A stretch of 11,905 bases of DNA from Bdellovibrionia bacterium (GCA_045805065.1 JBJMMA010000041.1:1-11905), one strand, 5' to 3'. Positions 610 through 8,424 are shown, counted from the first letter of the stretch. Made by a program: numbers and translations. The notes: generated from the letters alone by a model not told the origin.

Positions 610-899
610 GTATTATTGCCTGAAGAGGATGAAGAAGAGGAAGTCGTGGTGGCTGCTTCGACCGGTTGAGCAGTTGAAGCTTGAGCGGCAGCGGTTTGAG
701 CTGCGGCAGCTTGATGAGCTTGTTGAGCCTTTTGTTCTTCAATGCGGCGAAACTGAGCTTCTTCAACGCCAGATACGGCATCCTTGAAGTTACGAATCGC
801 TTTGCCTAAAGTGTTTCCGAGCTCCGGCAAGCGACGGGGTCCGAAAATGAGTAATACAATGCCCAAAATAAGTAGATGTTCGCCAGAAATTCCAAACAT
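606..899 (-). CDS. tatA: Twin-arginine translocase TatA/TatE family subunit
   Basis: N-terminal TM helix, FG hinge and amphipathic helix (LLIFGPRRLPELGNTLGKAIRNFKDA), then a low-complexity Q/A/T/S tail. Confidence 0.93.
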   Translation of the reverse strand: MFGISGEHLLILGIVLLIFGPRRLPELGNTLGKAIRNFKDAVSGVEEAQFRRIEEQKAQQAHQAAAAQTAAAQASTAQPVEAATTTSSSSSSSGNNT

Positions 900-1605
900 A
901 TCTAACCTATACAGGTGCCTGGGAGTCGTGTCAATTTGCCTGATCGGACTTGTCGCGATTGTGCACCCAAAACTGGGCCAAGCGGACGAGCTAAGGCCAC
1001 GTTCTGGCAGTCCTTATGTCCAAATCACAGGCGATGATGCCGAGGATGAGCGCACTCGCTGGGATACGATTTTTAATACGGCAACTTACGTCTTTGGAAC
1101 CGAGCCTTTTCCATTCCTCAAAGAGAACATTCACCTCCTGCCGGTGGGTAAGGCATTGGACCTGGCAAGCTCGGAGGGAAGAAACTCGGTTTTCCTGGCC
1201 AAGAGGGGATTTCAGGTTACCGGAGTGGATTACTCTGATGTTGCTCTCACCAAGGCTCGAAGACTGGCCCACGCCAATCACGTCAGCATCAAAACGGTGA
1301 ACGCCGATTTGACCGATTACACGATCAAGCCCGAATCCTACGATGTGATTCTCAACATCGACTTTCCTCAGCGCGGCCTCATCACTCAGATCAAGCGCGG
1401 CCTCAGACACGGGGGTATGGTCGTTTACGTGGGCTACACCGAAGATCAGACCAAAAACGAGGCTGGAAAATCGATCAGTCATCGCGAAAAGTTTTTCAAG
1501 AAGGGTGAGCTCAAAGAACTCTTCAAAGACTTCAAGGTTCTGGTCTATAAAGAGACCAATGACGGAAACGACGCGTACGCCAACTTGATTGCAAAGAAAC
1601 CGTGA
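847..1605 (+). CDS. Class I SAM-dependent methyltransferase, TehB-like; start uncertain (ATG 847, ATG 859 or GTG 928)
   Basis: W....Y.FG.EP..FL, motif I ALDLASSEGRNSVFLAKRG, V.GVD.S..AL, YDVI and L..GG. GGGGT lies 6 nt before ATG 847. The TTG at 784 is unlikely because it lies deep inside tatA. Confidence 0.85.
   Translation: MSNTMPKISRCSPEIPNISNLYRCLGVVSICLIGLVAIVHPKLGQADELRPRSGSPYVQITGDDAEDERTRWDTIFNTATYVFGTEPFPFLKENIHLLPVGKALDLASSEGRNSVFLAKRGFQVTGVDYSDVALTKARRLAHANHVSIKTVNADLTDYTIKPESYDVILNIDFPQRGLITQIKRGLRHGGMVVYVGYTEDQTKNEAGKSISHREKFFKKGELKELFKDFKVLVYKETNDGNDAYANLIAKKP
906..934 (-). promoter_or_regulatory. Sigma-70-like promoter for tatA-hpt
   Basis: The minus strand reads TTGACA(934-929)-N17-TATAGG(911-906)-N6-ATG(899). 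The -35 is perfect and the -10 matches 4/6. Confidence 0.55.
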
Positions 1606-2831
1606 CCACACTCAATTCGCATAGCGCCCAGCATCCGCCGCAACTCAAAAAAATCTCTGAACTCGCCTGGGTCTTTTTACGGATCGGATGCCTTGGATTT
1701 GGTGGACCCATCGCGACGATGGCGATGATGGAAGAAGAGGCCTGTCGCCGGCGCGGTTGGATCACGCAAGCTCAGTACAATGAGATGTACGCCATCACCA
1801 AAATGCTCCCGGGCCCTGCGTCCACGCAGCTTGCGATCTTTATCGGAAAAACTTATGCGGGCACGCTCGGTGGATTAGTCGCAGGAATCTTGTTTATCCT
1901 GCCGTCTTTTCTTTTTGTTCTCGCGCTCTCGATTCTCTACGTCAAGAGCGGCCATGTCAGTCAGGTGAGGGGACTCCTCACGGGTCTTCAAATCGGCGCG
2001 CTTGCGGTGATCCTGATCTCCGTTGAGCAGATGGCCAAGCATTACTGGAAAGAGCTCTACGCCTGGATCATCGTGGCGATCAGTGCCGTTTTGATTTTTT
2101 ATCAGCCTCGCTGGGAGCCTTTGGTGATTCTGTTCTTTGGTGTTCTGGGAGCGATTCTTTTCTCGCGTAAGTTCAAAAGCGACGCTGCTCATTCTGTGCC
2201 TGCAAGGACGTCGAGCCAAAGCGATGGCGAATTATCGGACGAATTGTCGGATACCACACTCAAGGCCGTGGTCGCAGCACCACTGGTGGGCGCGGCCAGT
2301 CTATCGACTTTGGGCCAGCTTTTTTGGACCTGCTTCAAGGCAGGAGCCTTTGTCTTTGGAACCGGGCTTGCGATTGTTCCCGTGCTGGAAGGGGATACGG
2401 TTTCGCACTTTCACTGGGTCACGCACAGTCAGTTCATGGATGGACTTGCCATCGGACAGATCACGCCGGGCCCGGTAGTCATCACTGTGACGTTTATTGG
2501 TTACATCGCGGCAGGGTTGCTGGGATCTCTCATCTCAACGATCGGGATATTCATGCCGCCGTTTATTAACATCCTGATTCTCGTTCCGCTTTTCTGGGCG
2601 CGCTGGAGTGGGACACCCTCCTCGAAAGGCTTTTCAAGCTGGGCGATCCCTGCAGTCATTGGGGGAATTCTTGGAACGATGGTGAGGTTGGGCGTGATCA
2701 CTGTCACGACGCCTGCGCAGCTTGTGCTTTTGATCGTCTGTCTAATTTGCGCCATGAGATTTCGCCCGCCAGCTTGGCTGCTCATTCCGGGAGCTGGAAT
2801 TGCCGCACAAGTACTTTCGTTCATAGGATAA
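1602..2831 (+). CDS. chrA: Chromate ion transporter (CHR family, long-chain, two homologous halves)
   Basis: GFGGP and MLPGP in the N-half, FGTGLA and GQITPGP in the C-half, with many TM segments. The GTG start overlaps the upstream stop (GTGA). Confidence 0.92.
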   Translation: MTTLNSHSAQHPPQLKKISELAWVFLRIGCLGFGGPIATMAMMEEEACRRRGWITQAQYNEMYAITKMLPGPASTQLAIFIGKTYAGTLGGLVAGILFILPSFLFVLALSILYVKSGHVSQVRGLLTGLQIGALAVILISVEQMAKHYWKELYAWIIVAISAVLIFYQPRWEPLVILFFGVLGAILFSRKFKSDAAHSVPARTSSQSDGELSDELSDTTLKAVVAAPLVGAASLSTLGQLFWTCFKAGAFVFGTGLAIVPVLEGDTVSHFHWVTHSQFMDGLAIGQITPGPVVITVTFIGYIAAGLLGSLISTIGIFMPPFINILILVPLFWARWSGTPSSKGFSSWAIPAVIGGILGTMVRLGVITVTTPAQLVLLIVCLICAMRFRPPAWLLIPGAGIAAQVLSFIG

Positions 2832-3697: not shown

Positions 3698-4897
3698 ATG
3701 GAAAGATACAGAAAAGCCGCGGTCTGGTGCATGATCGGCTACTTCGTCAATTCTTCTCTGATCATGCTTTCAGAGATCCCGATGGTTCCTGAAAGCCAAA
3801 GAACGCTTTTCATTGTGACGAAGTTTCTTTTGATCGTGTGGACTATTCCCATGGCTTTCTGGCTTTATCGAGATGTCTTCTCACAGACTGCCAACACCAT
3901 CGTGGGTGTTTTGTTCATGATCTATGTCATTCATGGGCAATACTTCCGTCCGCTTTATTATTTCGCATTTGCCCAGCTCTTGATGCTGTACTCGTTTTTG
4001 TTTCCGATCTCAAAAACGCGTTTTCGAATCATCGCCGGTTTCGGTGGACTGGGTTATCTTGCGGTCTTTTTTTATCGCTGGGACGCCTACGTTGAGGCGC
4101 TTCGACATCCAAGTGCTTCCGACATGGTGTTTTGTGTTACTGCGATGTGGATCATCGGGTACATCGCGAATACTTTCTTTGCGTCGGAGCGAAGCTTTCG
4201 CGAAGAAGCGATGAAACGCTTTGGCCATATCGGGATCCAGACTGCGCGTGTTGTTCATGACTTGAAGGGCCTGGTCGCAGCTCCGAAGCTTTATGTGCAA
4301 ATGCTTCAATCCAAGTTCAATTCAGTGGAAGATGCCGAAGCGGTGGAAGTGTTAAACGCCCTTTCCAGAGACCTCGAAGGTTTCAGTCGCGTTCTCTTTG
4401 AGTTGAATCAGCTTTCGGGCTTCAAGTCGCAAGAAGTGGCGCAAGTATCGGTAAGTGAAGTCGTTGATTCACTCAGAGTTCTCTTGAAGAATCAGCTGTC
4501 TGGCGTCCAGCTCGATTCATCCGTTCAGATGACGATTGAGGCAGATAAGACGCTTTTTAGCTCGATGCTGATGAATCTCATTTTGAACTCGATTGATGCG
4601 TTCCGCGCCTCGAAGGTGAGCGAACCTAAAATATCGATCATCGAGGAAGATCATCGAATTCGGGTCATCGACAATGGCGGTGGTTTTGATCAACAGGTCC
4701 TGAAGTCGATTTCTCAAGGTCAATTCTTATCGACTCGCCCCAAGGGAAGTGCGCTGGGACTTTTCTTTGTTTTTGATGGCATGAAGAAGATGGGCGGGAG
4801 CGTAAAGACTTATAACATCGCTGATGGCGCATGCGTTGAGCTGATCTTTCCAAAAAAATATCAGGCGAAAAAAAACGGGCCAGACATTTCTGCCTGA
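3698..4897 (+). CDS. Membrane sensor histidine kinase with a polytopic N-terminus
   Basis: About 5-6 hydrophobic segments in the first ~165 aa. H-box ARVVHDLK, N-box NLILNSIDA, G1 DNGGGF and G2-like GSALGL. Confidence 0.9.
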   Translation: MERYRKAAVWCMIGYFVNSSLIMLSEIPMVPESQRTLFIVTKFLLIVWTIPMAFWLYRDVFSQTANTIVGVLFMIYVIHGQYFRPLYYFAFAQLLMLYSFLFPISKTRFRIIAGFGGLGYLAVFFYRWDAYVEALRHPSASDMVFCVTAMWIIGYIANTFFASERSFREEAMKRFGHIGIQTARVVHDLKGLVAAPKLYVQMLQSKFNSVEDAEAVEVLNALSRDLEGFSRVLFELNQLSGFKSQEVAQVSVSEVVDSLRVLLKNQLSGVQLDSSVQMTIEADKTLFSSMLMNLILNSIDAFRASKVSEPKISIIEEDHRIRVIDNGGGFDQQVLKSISQGQFLSTRPKGSALGLFFVFDGMKKMGGSVKTYNIADGACVELIFPKKYQAKKNGPDISA

Positions 4898-4903
4898 CCC
4901 GTT
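4868..4903 (-). terminator. Rho-independent terminator of the transglutaminase-like operon
   Basis: The minus strand reads AACGGGTCAGGCA-GAAA-TGTCTGGCCCGTT-TTTTTT: a 13-bp stem with two G-U pairs, a GNRA loop and a U-tract, about 30 nt after the stop at 4932. Confidence 0.85.
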
Positions 4904-4931
4904 GCTCGTTCTAGCGTTGCTAGCCTAGATT

Positions 4932-6398
4932 TTAATGGTGGCCGCCACCGGTGTTGCCAGTGTTGCTATGTCCACCACCCGTGCCCGTGCCGCCACCGCC
5001 ATGGGTGGGTACCGGAGCGGGAGCGGGAGCTGGTGCCGGATCCGTCGTAGGAGTCGACGTTGGATTCGAGCCAGGCCATGGGAAAGGCCACCATGGAGAA
5101 TGACTCGATGTCGGTACCGGAGTCGGGGCCGGATTGGTGATCACAGGTCCCGACGTGGTTCCTGGGTTAGGAGTCGACGATGGACGTGGGCTTGAACTTG
5201 GCGCAGGTTGAACCGTGCCAGGATGCGCCGACGTATCATCGCGTCCGCCCGGGACGAGGATGTGATTTTCAATCCAGCGGATATCAATCTGCGGATTGGC
5301 GCTATCATCATCCGGATCGGTCGATGGAACGAGTGAGTAGGGCACCCACATATAGTCAGGCCATGCATCGTTGGAGAATCCACCCATCTTCCAAGCACCA
5401 CCGAGGAAGTATTCGCCCTGACGAGTGACAATCACGTTACCCGAAGAGGTGATCTTTCCGTCGGCTCCGAAAACAACGGGAGCATCGAGCCAGATTTCCA
5501 TCTTAAGAACACGGCTTGCGTAAATATCCGTGTCATAGGCTGGGAAATCAAACGCAGGCGTTTGAACGTTTGCCGCAACTTCGTCGCTTGCCCACCACAT
5601 CGTGGAAGTGACGTTGATTCGGTAAACGTTTGGATGTTCTGGATCTGCTCCCAGGTAATCCTCGCGTTTTGGATATTCCATGCGATAGCCAGCCAATGGC
5701 TGGTTCCACACTTGATCGCCGGTGTAGCGGTCGATCAGAACCGTGTTCCCAAGCTTGCCCATGTAGTTGGTCAAGACGAGGAAGTATTGATCAGGAACCG
5801 TGTCATCGGCTTTTGGAGTATTGAAATCACCGCCGAAGTCGACGCGATTTCCAAAGAAGTCAGCGTTTGCGGACATGCCGGCCTCTGCGAGGAGACCCTT
5901 GATGTCTGCAACACCAAACTCAATTCCATTCACTTTCACAGAGTCAGTTGGTTCTGGATAGAGTGCAGACGATGCGCACCATCCGTTACAGTGACCCCAC
6001 CAGCCTTGAATGCCCTTGACGTTTGGACCGTGGAAGCGACCTTCCCAGCTTTGAGCGCTGGTCTGGTTGCCGCGAGCCGCATCGTACTTGCCTGCAGGGC
6101 TTCCGCCGCTGGTCGAGCGAGCCGAAGCGATGCCGTTTTCCTTATAAGGCCACCAATAACCTGCCCAAGGTGCACGTTTTGGCTTACCTTCAGCGTATTT
6201 ATTGATGAGAGCCGCGAAGTTCTTTTCGCCGGCCACATCGCCGCCGCGGAAACGTGGGTAAGGATTATTGCGTCCCGTTCCGTTGATGTCATCAAAGTTA
6301 AAGTCCGCACTTTCAGGCTTGCCGCATGATTGCAACGCCAGCACGGATGCAAGCGCTGCGACAAGAGTCGTAGTGATTCCTGCTTTGATCAGTTTCAT
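4932..6398 (-). CDS. Putative lipoprotein with a transglutaminase-elicitor (GP42/Pep-13-like) domain and a Pro/Ser/Thr/Gly-rich tail
   Basis: The ATG at 6398 has GGGAGG upstream and overlaps the upstream stop (ATGA). The signal peptide ends LALQSC. Ordered motifs PWAGYWWP, SPAGKYD, WWGHCNGW, EP...V..NG..F...DIKGLL, FFG.R, Y.GK.....ID and VWNQP match the family from recall. Confidence 0.85.
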   Translation of the reverse strand: MKLIKAGITTTLVAALASVLALQSCGKPESADFNFDDINGTGRNNPYPRFRGGDVAGEKNFAALINKYAEGKPKRAPWAGYWWPYKENGIASARSTSGGSPAGKYDAARGNQTSAQSWEGRFHGPNVKGIQGWWGHCNGWCASSALYPEPTDSVKVNGIEFGVADIKGLLAEAGMSANADFFGNRVDFGGDFNTPKADDTVPDQYFLVLTNYMGKLGNTVLIDRYTGDQVWNQPLAGYRMEYPKREDYLGADPEHPNVYRINVTSTMWWASDEVAANVQTPAFDFPAYDTDIYASRVLKMEIWLDAPVVFGADGKITSSGNVIVTRQGEYFLGGAWKMGGFSNDAWPDYMWVPYSLVPSTDPDDDSANPQIDIRWIENHILVPGGRDDTSAHPGTVQPAPSSSPRPSSTPNPGTTSGPVITNPAPTPVPTSSHSPWWPFPWPGSNPTSTPTTDPAPAPAPAPVPTHGGGGTGTGGGHSNTGNTGGGHH

Positions 6399-7219
6399 GA
6401 CGCCCTCCCGTTCACGTTCGAGCGAAGAAGAATGGACATGCCGGAGCTGGTCTTCAGATACGAAGGCCATGGATTACCGTATTGCCAAAGGATTTGGACA
6501 GGGCGTCCAAAGAAGTCATCTTGCTCAAGCCAGGTGCTTTGATTGAGCACTGGCTGATAGCCCGCGCGACTTGCAACGGATTGAACCGTGGCAGGAAGTT
6601 CAGGCAGGGAAGAAGGTGTGTTCTTGATCGCAGTTGCGATTTCAGGAACATCCAAAGCATAAAGCTCGATCGGAGTGATCCGAGAATGCAATCCGTCAGG
6701 CGAGACTTTCACTGCTTCAGCACTGCCTTTCAGACGATAGGCCTTCTCGGTTTGCACGAGTCGATCGCTCATTGTGAGAGTCAGCTCTTCGACTTTTGGA
6801 TCGACCGGGGTCATTCCAAAGTCAGAAATCTGCTTCACGCTGATCACGACTTGAGGCGTCGTGCCGTTGCGAACTTCCTTCACTTCGTAGTGAAAGACGC
6901 CGCCTTTGCCAACCTTAGGCGACTGCCCTTCAGCAATCGGAGCATAGGACAGCATCGGGTTTTTGATCTCCCAAGATGCAACATCCCAGGAGTCTCCAAC
7001 CTTATAATATCGGCCAAAATAGGCCTTAATGATCGGTGAGCTCAGCGCATTGGCTGATCCCGATTGCTGTGTCCGCGCAACTTTCTCGCTGACGATTTTA
7101 AGAGCGTTCTTGTAATCCTGTTCCGTCATTCCAAAAGTCGAAGAGCTTGCAACGAGCATCACTAAGCTCGAGCATAGGAGCCCTTTGTAGCTTTTATTTT
7201 TCCAATCAACCATTCGCAT
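6395..7219 (-). CDS. Hypothetical secreted protein
   Basis: 274-aa ORF with GGAGG upstream (start 7219 or 7213) and a Sec-type signal peptide (KGLLCSSLVMLVASSSTFG). It is coupled to the downstream gene. No family recognised. Confidence 0.85.
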   Translation of the reverse strand: MRMVDWKNKSYKGLLCSSLVMLVASSSTFGMTEQDYKNALKIVSEKVARTQQSGSANALSSPIIKAYFGRYYKVGDSWDVASWEIKNPMLSYAPIAEGQSPKVGKGGVFHYEVKEVRNGTTPQVVISVKQISDFGMTPVDPKVEELTLTMSDRLVQTEKAYRLKGSAEAVKVSPDGLHSRITPIELYALDVPEIATAIKNTPSSLPELPATVQSVASRAGYQPVLNQSTWLEQDDFFGRPVQILWQYGNPWPSYLKTSSGMSILLRSNVNGRAS

Positions 7220-7243
7220 AGACCCTCCGCGCCGTCAGCACTC

Positions 7244-7260
7244 AGCAATCGGCGTGCCGG
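7244..7260 (-). promoter_or_regulatory. Sigma-54 (-24/-12) promoter
   Basis: The minus strand reads CCGGCACGCCGATTGCT against the consensus YTGGCACG-N4-TTGCW, with exact GG-N10-GC spacing. The predicted start near 7233 lies just upstream of the GGAGG at 7228-7224. Confidence 0.8.
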
Positions 7261-7288
7261 ACAACCAAAAGCGTGTTAGCGTGGATGG

Positions 7289-7762
7289 GTGACAAGCGAT
7301 TTGAGTCCGACATCGCCATCCTTGGGATCTGCATCTACGCTGGGGAGCCGCCCTGCGGGTTTCTTTCTGCGAGTCGTTGCATCACTCTTGGATCTTTCGA
7401 TTGTCGTGCTTGCGACTTGGGTATTGGCGATGCTTTTAATCCATACGCATGATCCTGAGGCGGAGCAGGATGCGGTGGTGACGATTTTCTTAGTCGTCAG
7501 CGCGGCTTACTCGGTGGGGTTCAATTGCTGGAAGGGTGGAACGCCTGGAAAGCTTCTCTTTGGAATGCGCGTTGTGCGAATGCGGGATGGAGCGCGGCTG
7601 ACCTGGCACCAAGCTCTGGCGCGCTGGGCAAGCTATCTTCTATCCGCGTCGCTCTTTGGTGCAGGGTTTTTAATGGCGGCGTTTCATCCATTAAAGAGAA
7701 CGATCCACGATCTTTTGGGCGGCTCGCGCGTGATCAGGCTGACATCAAAGTCGAAAGTCTAA
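7289..7762 (+). CDS. RDD family membrane protein
   Basis: AGFFLRVVASLLD, GGTPGKLLFGMRVV, ALARW and KRTIHDLLGGSRV, with three hydrophobic segments. Confidence 0.92.
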   Translation: MTSDLSPTSPSLGSASTLGSRPAGFFLRVVASLLDLSIVVLATWVLAMLLIHTHDPEAEQDAVVTIFLVVSAAYSVGFNCWKGGTPGKLLFGMRVVRMRDGARLTWHQALARWASYLLSASLFGAGFLMAAFHPLKRTIHDLLGGSRVIRLTSKSKV

Positions 7763-8061
7763 GCCTTTTGGCCAACGAGATAGGTGACGCTGCCGTTTTT
7801 TGAAACTTCTGCAGTGTGGGGGAGTTTGGCCGGGAGATAGAGACGATCGCCAGTTTTGAGCGAGTACTTCTGATCTTCGATTTCAAAGATGAGCTCGCCT
7901 CTTAAAATCCAGATGCACTCATCTTGTTTGTGGACGTGCTTGCGATAGCAGGCACCTGGCACGTCGTACCATTTAAAGGATTCGTAACCTTCTTGATGAA
8001 GTCGTGCTTCCGCCTCTTCTTGAGAAGGAGGATCCGCACGTTCCCATCTAACAATCCGCAT
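7759..8061 (-). CDS. Cupin domain protein
   Basis: Motif 1 HVHKQDECIWILRGEL and motif 2 GDRLYLPAKLPHT. AAGGT lies upstream of the ATG. Confidence 0.9.
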   Translation of the reverse strand: MRIVRWERADPPSQEEAEARLHQEGYESFKWYDVPGACYRKHVHKQDECIWILRGELIFEIEDQKYSLKTGDRLYLPAKLPHTAEVSKNGSVTYLVGQKA

Positions 8062-8067
8062 CGTACC

Positions 8068-8298
8068 TTAGATTGTACCACCAGACGTTTGGGATTTGGA
8101 TAGTCCTAAGTCCCAAAGTTCACGAGAGAAAACACGAATTTCTTCAAGCTCGCGCCACATACCTGGCTGCCAGCCTTTGGCGCCTTCGAAAGATTCGTAT
8201 TCCCAGGCGGCTACGTCATTGTGCAGTGCGGTAACGGCGGCGTTAACGCCTTGGGATTTCAGAATTTCGATGTATTTGTCGCGGTCGATTTTGAACAT
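8068..8298 (-). CDS. Small hypothetical protein, probably co-transcribed with the cupin
   Basis: 76 aa with protein-like amphipathic composition. It ends 6 nt before the cupin start and fills the gap without conflict. Confidence 0.75.
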   Translation of the reverse strand: MFKIDRDKYIEILKSQGVNAAVTALHNDVAAWEYESFEGAKGWQPGMWRELEEIRVFSRELWDLGLSKSQTSGGTI

Positions 8299-8378
8299 AT
8301 ATCTAACGATTACTCGTAAATCGGTCCGCGCTCAAGAGTTTAGGTGGAGATAAGTGGCTGGGAATCGTTTCAGAATCA

Positions 8379-8407
8379 CCTGGGGCCGCCTTTCGAGCGA
8401 CCCCAGG
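8379..8407 (-). terminator. GC-rich hairpin downstream of the 8425-8820 gene (terminator or 3' stabiliser)
   Basis: The minus strand reads CCTGGGGTCGC-TCGAAAG-GCGGCCCCAGG, an 11-bp stem 17 nt after the stop. The U-tract is weak (TGATTCT). Confidence 0.5.
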
Positions 8408-8424
8408 ACCCTTGGAGGAAACTT

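Follow-up and report, generated by a model that had tools for sequence, protein, structure and literature searches.

Contig JBJMMA010000041.1 (C41) of the Bdellovibrionia genome assembly GCA_045805065.1, whose entire 11,905 bases form the window analysed here, carries on its minus strand two genes that are best read, as far as the sequence goes, as a translationally coupled, sigma-54-dependent operon: one for a secreted partner protein and, behind it, one for a lipoprotein enzyme of the GP42/TGase_elicitor family. The genome (4.22 Mb in 262 contigs, 94% complete) comes from an uncultured Bdellovibrio-type soil bacterium, and none of the 11 read runs listed for window positions 4800-7500 (best word share 0.27) is RNA: all are DNA runs on soil, root or rhizosphere material.

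In the direction of transcription, the unit begins with a -24/-12 promoter element (7244..7259) and a GGAGGG ribosome-binding site (7223..7228), which lies 3 nucleotides (nt) before the first ATG and is conserved in a same-genus locus, L005. The partner gene (gene 1, P0001; 6395..7219) runs from the ATG at 7219 to a TGA at 6397-6395 and encodes 274 aa. Its stop is shared with the start of the enzyme gene (gene 2, P0002; 4932..6398; 488 aa) in an ATGA overlap (6395..6398), the enzyme ATG being at 6398, an arrangement typical of translational coupling, and this start point agrees with the starts of the enzyme's homologues. The unit is closed by an intrinsic terminator (4866..4903) with a 13-bp stem (4903-4874), a loop of 4 and a run of eight T; it folds with -24.2 kcal/mol (z -5.27), and none of 200 shuffles folded equally well. 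On the plus strand no T-run follows the stem, which suggests that the hairpin terminates transcription of the minus-strand operon alone. An earlier description made from the DNA alone, referred to below as the sequence-only reading, had proposed a promoter, a ribosome-binding site, a secreted 274-aa protein, an ATGA overlap, a 488-aa lipoprotein and a terminator in this order, and all of them were found on the minus strand exactly where it had placed them.

The enzyme matches the Pfam family PF16683 (TGase_elicitor) in two stretches, with 70.7 bits (cut-off 25) and an E-value of 1.3e-19, and the best stretch pairs residues 130-241 with profile positions 115-237 of 361. Among the matches listed, 120 of 120 enzyme homologues carry PF16683. 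The enzyme also aligns by sequence (E 1e-10) with 3tw5_A, the structure of GP42 from Phytophthora sojae (3TW5), which is a Ca2+-dependent transglutaminase and the source of the Pep-13 peptide. An AlphaFold model of the enzyme built with 37 sequences reached a predicted local distance difference test score (pLDDT) of 78.5, with the lipoprotein linker and the C-terminal tail disordered. A Foldseek search with this model returned 3tw5_A as the sole match with E <= 0.001 (E 6.3e-14, probability 1.00), and with VIA the two structures superimpose with Z 25.1 and a root-mean-square deviation (rmsd) of 3.0 over 279 residues at 24% identity; the next neighbours are papain-like cysteine proteases at Z of about 6 (next entry 6.1). 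The enzyme is thus, by sequence and modelled fold, a papain-superfamily cysteine enzyme of the GP42 family, as the sequence-only reading had recognised, although the active-site motif that goes with GP42, a Cys followed by His, is replaced here by His-Cys-Asn.

The active-site motif, W133-W-G-H-C137-N-G-W140 (5979..6002), was located by alignment with 3tw5_A and by conservation: W133, G135, C137 and W140 are invariant (C137 in 37 of 37 aligned sequences), H136 and N138 are conserved in at least 90%, and the pattern W[WVF]GHCNGW can be read in 31 of 33 partner-linked loci. In the model C137 starts a helix, 137-146. It is aligned with the Ser of an S-H dipeptide in 3tw5_A, at the place where the GP42 cysteine is described, from which we infer that the crystallised chain carries a Cys-to-Ser change at residue 290; a literature search on GP42 Cys290 gave no match. 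The GP42 structure was originally described by Reiss et al. 2011. According to a 2023 classification of papain-like enzymes, GP42 belongs to the papain-like superfamily and is unusual in that its His directly follows the Cys, in a 'CH' motif (PMC10318531). In the enzyme described here His136 precedes and Asn138 follows Cys137. The invariant residues D223, N232, D305 and D348 could, judging from the alignment, contribute an acidic or amide partner of the active site.

A Pep-13-like segment, V230-WNQPLAGYRMEY (5673..5711), lies further along the chain. There VWNQPLAGYRMEY of the enzyme is aligned with VWNQPVRGFKV of 3tw5_A, and W231, N232 and P234 are invariant, making this the best-conserved part (VWNQP.xG). 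The full Pep-13 peptide of Phytophthora is VWNQPVRGFKVYE. Beyond the shared family, fold, cysteine position and Pep-13 segment there are several differences from GP42: the enzyme is bacterial, it is lipid-anchored, it has a Pro-rich tail of 100 residues, it matches the PF16683 profile strongly only in the part noted above, and it is encoded, as known here from sequence and models, with a dedicated coupled partner under a sigma-54 promoter. The anchor is a lipobox, L22-Q-S-C25 (6324..6335), read from the translation, with Gly at +2 and a Cys column that is at least 90% conserved in the alignment. The tail (residues ~392-488; 4935..5225) is a Pro/Ser/Thr-rich, Gly/His-ended low-complexity stretch with pLDDT <50 at 408-456 and 462-488; close homologues of the enzyme have tails of similar composition and different sequence, and three paralogs have none.

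The partner is exported, having a hydrophobic N-terminus without a lipobox and a signal peptide of about residues 1-30 (signal peptides were called by eye and from alignments rather than with a predictor). A long helix (33-52) is followed by a LolA-like half-barrel (~62-271). All aligned family members share the hydrophobic N-terminus and the signature EQDDFFGRPVQILWQxGxPWPSYLKT; Q233 and K159 are invariant and K46 is nearly so. The protein belongs to no Pfam or NCBIfam family, and a sequence search of the PDB found no relative (best E 0.52). The one sub-threshold Pfam match to recur, SCAF11-like_C in six of 31 family members (best E 0.0032), was taken as noise from the N-terminal helix. A word-indexed search recovered 35 family proteins, P0001 included, and a profile hidden Markov model search of 1.84 billion representatives recovered 174; none of the best 150 of these 174 exceeds 337 aa, and no fused form was seen among them. 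The few of the 35 that carry a name come from metagenome bins of Bdellovibrionota, Bdellovibrionales or Oligoflexia, and one that is labelled Methylotenera is given as Oligoflexia by a second source. The partner forms a small, previously undescribed protein family.

The partner model (pLDDT 78.7, predicted template-modelling score 0.73) shows a helix and then an open beta half-barrel, for which the list of structural matches points consistently, though with moderate scores, to the LolA/LolB/RseB/LppX superfamily and the chlamydial protein CT021 (6UXD, PF24683). Its best structural neighbour is CT021 (6uxd; Z 9.5, rmsd 3.5, 142 aligned), followed by 2yzy (Z 8.7) and the LolA chain 8t5j (Z 8.7). 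Many LolA, LolB, RseB and LppX chains score Z 6-8.7 over ~130-160 residues, which is near the range for unrelated beta proteins, and the list also includes MucB, LprF, vitellogenin, MTP and lipid-transfer entries; in Foldseek, RseB was matched with E 4e-3 and a template-modelling score of 0.33. When language-model features were compared, the nearest Atlas clusters were those of CT021 (score 0.92; 161 of 256 features, where 170 is typical of true members), and the partner may be a distant relative of the CT021 family. By sequence, in contrast, the partner falls outside both groups: 0 of 31 family members match PF24683 or the LolA family PF03548 at E up to 1, and PF24683 finds no match in the genome at the same limit. 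Moreover, the housekeeping LolA is a separate gene (C139:21159-21668, 93.9 bits), and the partner differs from these proteins in its extra N-terminal helix and in its predicted binding target, a folded enzyme domain instead of acyl chains.

The association of the two genes is conserved well beyond this genome. The partner profile was found in 34 of 401 genomes of the phylum, our own included; the others comprise 29 of 57 genomes of its family, 2 of 7 of a sister family and, weakly, 2 of 100 of another family. The related loci fetched number 33, or 30 unique ones when three that were picked up twice, by two tools, are counted once. In 32 of these 33 (29 of the 30 unique loci) the partner gene is directly followed by a GP42-type gene of the same orientation; the unpaired exception is one of the two divergent partner copies that one genome carries. 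Conversely, an enzyme ortholog of at least 50% identity is present in 28 other genomes, and the partner is immediately adjacent in 26 of them, the remaining two being from a genus where the partner is barely detectable. The overlap is also retained: 23 of the 29 paired unique loci have ATGA and 2 more have TGATG (25 of 29 together). Across the same loci the partner shows 22-47% identity and the enzyme 35-65%, so that the partner evolves faster. Faster evolution than that of the enzyme is common among inhibitors and adaptors. In three divergent loci (L037, L038 and L040) the partner is kept and the enzyme has, by eye, a plain signal peptide with no lipobox Cys; since the partner persists where the enzyme lacks a lipobox, a protein-protein role fits better than a lipid-carrier role. 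Unusual arrangements occur at two loci, G112:C46:15708-18693 and G141:C52:23052-26533: in one of these genomes a lone partner gene is followed by two enzyme genes in tandem, and the other has two divergent partner genes, one of them followed by an enzyme gene with an in-frame TAA.

The promoter element, C-GGCACG-CCGA-TTGCT, has its GG at 7258-7257 and its GC at 7246-7245. The promoter sequence GGCACGCCGATTGCT spans 7258-7244 on the minus strand, and CGGCACGCCGATTGCT agrees with 11 of 12 positions of the sigma-54 consensus (TGGCACG-N4-TTGCW, with the GG and GC doublets 10 nt apart), with the GC 25 nt ahead of the partner ATG. No sigma-70-like site was seen upstream of gene 1. The pattern GGCAY-N5-TTGCT occurs once in the window against 0.06 expected, and 10 of 200 shuffles contained at least one match. 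Over both strands of the 4.22-Mb genome there are 34 sites with at least 11 of 12 positions, the operon promoter being one of them; 31 of the 34 lie just upstream of, and within 150 nt of, an open reading frame (ORF) of at least 80 aa, mostly for exported proteins or lipoproteins by eye, and these best sites suggest a sigma-54 regulon rich in envelope proteins.

Across the related loci we scanned from -200 to +60 of the partner start for elements with correct GG/GC spacing and at least 9 of 12 positions, and found one upstream of the partner in 29 of the 33 fetched loci (26 of the 30 unique), where the background, taken from the rest of those loci, is 0.042 per 260 nt. The same scan found no element in the four most divergent loci (L034, L037, L038 and L040). 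Compared with L005, the stretch from the element to the ATG is nearly identical and the flank farther upstream has diverged, a footprint-like pattern. This conservation of the -24/-12 element across related loci supports sigma-54 dependence. By rule, transcription would be predicted to start near 7233, about 12 nt past the GC. The genome has one match to Sigma54_DBD, marking rpoN (218 bits, on C21), and 24 matches to Sigma54_activat, 17 of them with E <= 1e-46 (~17 strong enhancer-binding proteins). At L005 a fragment of an enhancer-binding protein gene lies 4.4 kb upstream of the locus; synteny differs there and no conclusion was drawn from it.

Structure prediction for enzyme residues 26-392 together with partner residues 30-274, using both alignments, gave a confident heterodimer, with an ipSAE of 0.87 (runs 0.88, 0.85 and 0.87) against 0.01 for the best control. 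On a benchmark, 116 of 157 solved complexes attain the mark used, as do 2 of 215 mismatched pairs, figures that serve as a rough guide here since we used our own alignments. The predicted interface comprises ~150 contacts, with at least 90% contact agreement between runs and a partner pLDDT of at least 84. No GP42 complex was present among the solved structures searched, and it is therefore unlikely that the predictor merely reproduced a complex it had memorised. On the enzyme side, the contacts involve three residues flanking the catalytic Cys (Q131, W134 and N138), two invariant aspartates (D223 and D305), the N-terminal linker 44-59 and the hairpin 323-338, which is missing from two partnerless paralogs; on the partner side, they involve helix 36-51, the loop 170-186 and the DFFGRP motif, with K46 and residue 234, beside Q233, among the contacting residues. 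The prediction supports the view that partner and enzyme bind each other. The sequence-only reading had supposed that the two genes go together behind a GG-N10-GC element and that the partner works with the enzyme as substrate, chaperone or inhibitor: the co-occurrence holds almost without exception in both directions, the element recurs in most of the loci, and joint action is now supported by a modelled complex. The family and fold match and the co-occurrence, either of which could have told against that reading, both came out in its favour.

We tentatively favour, as the likeliest single explanation and with something short of real confidence, that the pair is a sigma-54-induced envelope heterodimer in which the partner serves as a dedicated regulatory subunit and holds the enzyme in a latent or shielded state. 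This explanation starts from the observed gene structure, family and fold, conserved pairing, coupling and promoter, and supposes in addition an inhibitory partner, a chemistry and substrate for the enzyme and an inducing signal. An enhancer-binding protein would activate RNA polymerase with sigma-54, which would start near the position given above. Both products would be made in about equal amounts and exported by separate routes, the partner into the periplasm as a soluble protein and the enzyme as a lipoprotein, for which Gly at +2 makes the outer membrane the probable destination. The two would then form a tight 1:1 complex, in which the N-terminal helix, the 170-186 loop and the DFFGRP motif of the partner are predicted to wrap the catalytic face and the N-terminal linker of the enzyme. 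Only on arrival at its site of action would the enzyme be freed from this latent or shielded state, to cross-link or cleave an envelope protein or peptide substrate. We favour a latency-keeping partner because it apparently sits on the catalytic face, evolves fast, is dispensable for the fold family and is kept where the enzyme is unanchored.

Loose parallels to such an arrangement exist. In staphopain-staphostatin operons, and in the pro-peptide of the Streptomyces transglutaminase, a cysteine enzyme goes with a cognate blocking protein or pro-region. By analogy, these too combine a papain-superfamily cysteine enzyme with a co-expressed small, beta-rich cover of the active-site cleft. However, staphostatins are cytoplasmic, encoded downstream and built as lipocalin-like 8-stranded barrels, whereas the partner is exported, encoded upstream, LolA-like and unrelated to them in sequence; and the Streptomyces pro-peptide belongs to the same chain as its enzyme, whereas the partner is a separate protein with a presumed inhibitory effect. 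Bdellovibrio itself has a self-protection pair, the DD-endopeptidase Bd3459 and the ankyrin-type immunity protein Bd3460. The logic might be similar, an envelope-active predator enzyme neutralised in the producer by a periplasmic protein, but folds and families differ, Bd3459 is secreted into the prey whereas the enzyme here is lipid-anchored, and predation by this lineage is hypothetical.

Several observations weigh against a latency-keeping partner in a sigma-54-induced module. Covering of the active site is deduced from the list of residues in the modelled interface, and C137 itself is outside that list; nor are invariant partner residues enriched there (5 of 26, against 50 of 245 overall). 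Asn occupies the place of GP42's His after the catalytic Cys, and activity of the His-Cys-Asn arrangement is presumed from sequence. The LolA-like match of the partner is moderate, its best Z of 9.5 comparing with a typical noise best of 7-8. If enzyme and inhibitor are produced 1:1, some step must release the enzyme, and none is in evidence. On the regulatory side, the enhancer activator and the start site rest on prediction: none of the 24 Sigma54_activat matches is on the 11.9-kb contig, which has no gene for an enhancer-binding protein, and an activator site at the usual position (80-150 bp upstream) would be within the neighbouring RDD gene.

The main rival explanation, which we consider rather unlikely and still worth serious attention, is an obligate two-subunit enzyme, in which the noncatalytic partner builds the substrate site and its half-barrel presents a lipid-linked substrate to Cys137. 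The substrates would then be a lipoprotein acyl chain, lipid A or a lipid-linked peptide, and the pair would act as an acyl- or peptidyl-transfer machine on lipid-bearing envelope molecules. Pairing, coupling and the evidence for a complex fit this equally well, the fold list consists mostly of lipid or acyl binders (LolA, LolB, LppX/LprF, RseB/MucB, vitellogenin and MTP), and a permanent subunit suits 1:1 coupled synthesis better than an inhibitor does. However, the fold match is a moderate one, with Z at most 9.5, GP42 and three paralogs lack this partner, so that the catalytic domain does not depend on it in principle, and the partner evolves much faster than the enzyme. The same fold list, in which the LolA and LolB families are prominent, could also point to a dedicated lipoprotein carrier, that is, a private LolA-like chaperone that shields the acyl chains of the enzyme and ferries it across the periplasm or to the surface. 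The enzyme is indeed a lipoprotein with Gly at +2, and LolA paralogs with special roles have solved structures, such as P. gingivalis LolA3 (9tp6). We nevertheless give this explanation little credence: a canonical LolA gene is already present, the partner has no Pfam LolA match, and the large predicted protein-protein surface is on the catalytic domain, which was modelled without the lipidated N-terminus. A pure lipoprotein-carrier role is further weakened because the partner has been retained in the three divergent loci whose enzyme lacks the lipobox Cys.

A different alternative is that the partner is the substrate of the enzyme, acting as a transglutaminase, and is cross-linked via conserved Gln or Lys residues to itself or to the envelope, giving an induced surface layer or matrix. 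The partner does have an invariant Q233 and K159 and a nearly invariant K46, with K46 and the neighbour of Q233 in the predicted interface, and it is plausible that enzyme and substrate would share an operon. Yet a confident, rigid interface of ~150 contacts would be unusual for an enzyme-substrate encounter, residue 233 is not listed at the interface, residues 236-237 make their best-determined contacts with enzyme helix 202-215 and not with the Cys, and 1:1 coupled production is better suited to a complex; we regard the substrate role as a long shot. That the association is due to chance, with a fortuitous sigma-54-like motif, some other promoter and genes that are merely neighbours, is disfavoured and seems scarcely credible. 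The promoter statistic from the single window is modest, given the 10 shuffles in 200 with at least one match, but motif, gene order and overlap are conserved at partner identities down to 22%, and there is the predicted complex as well.

A bolder proposal, and an improbable one, goes beyond the single operon. The pair might be the first example to be recognised of a regulated system for envelope remodelling specific to Bdellovibrionota, in which a sigma-54 activator induces a GP42-type cysteine enzyme whose LolA-like subunit binds a lipid-bearing envelope molecule, and the two covalently tether or else trim lipoproteins or lipid-linked peptides, either on the cell's own surface or on that of a prey cell. 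Its His-Cys-Asn chemistry would differ from Gln-Lys cross-linking, and the expansion of GP42 in the phylum, usually with several paralogs per genome, would represent a toolkit of enzyme-partner pairs.

The phylum was sampled with 401 genomes, and PF16683 occurs in 209 of them, against 0 of 14 control genomes, so that, as far as this phylum is concerned, the bacterial homologues are not scattered, as the sequence-only reading had described them; the GP42 family is common and has diversified within a single bacterial phylum. Our genome has three further GP42-type paralogs, with the motifs GICHGW (C60), GHCNGW (C123) and GLCNAW (C226), and only the one on C60 has a His after the Cys. At all three loci (L001 124-1050 on C60, L002 515-1093 on C226 and L003 154-1032 on C123) a gene for an exported protein or lipoprotein is located just upstream on the same strand, with gaps of 49-132 nt, which raises the possibility that the GP42-type enzymes of this genome are as a rule encoded together with such a neighbour. 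The exported proteins upstream of the C123 and C226 paralogs were considered as relatives of the partner and set aside as unrelated, profile comparison giving probabilities of 0.3 and 0.1. One of the 34 best sigma-54 sites of the genome precedes the lipoprotein gene that adjoins the C226 paralog.

In our literature search, we found no tested bacterial member of the GP42 family and no description of the partner, and the GP42-family work among the matches listed is almost all on oomycetes or plant immunity. Nor did the titles or abstracts of the matches listed hold anything relevant on Bdellovibrio with transglutaminase, or anything on such a system for Bdellovibrio with RpoN or sigma-54. The operon thus joins a known kind of enzyme to a new partner family and, on the sequence evidence, places a GP42-type enzyme of this lineage under sigma-54 control, with a dedicated partner that had not been named before. 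It raises the questions of what role GP42-type enzymes play in bacteria, whether a cysteine enzyme can work with its His before rather than after the nucleophile, and what a CT021/LolA-like half-barrel does on the active face of an enzyme. If the lineage is predatory, the module would be a candidate for envelope remodelling during attack or development.

With regard to its surroundings, the operon has an RDD-family membrane protein gene as divergent neighbour (7289..7762, plus strand; Pfam RDD, E 1.3e-22), and the 69-nt gap at the 5' end of this gene contains the sigma-54 element. In 14 of the 30 unique related loci (by Pfam and tblastn) an RDD gene likewise adjoins the partner gene directly and divergently, and it may be a third member of the module. 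Past it in the window come a cupin gene, small ORFs, an AhpC/TSA-like gene and, truncated at the end of the contig, an ORF of the histidine-kinase type. On the downstream side, an OmpR-type response regulator and a histidine kinase are encoded convergently, and the histidine-kinase ORF (3698-4897, plus strand) has its stop codon inside the operon's terminator stem. Beyond this pair there are a TehB-like methyltransferase gene and a chromate-transporter gene (784-2831, plus strand; identified by Pfam), a few kb from the operon. In the distant locus L007 the N-terminal sequence of the gene at 7261-8418 looks, by eye, like that of a chromate transporter, as possibly does the one at 7331-8215 in L008, and the presence of such a gene near the operon both in the window and in L007 may reflect residual synteny.

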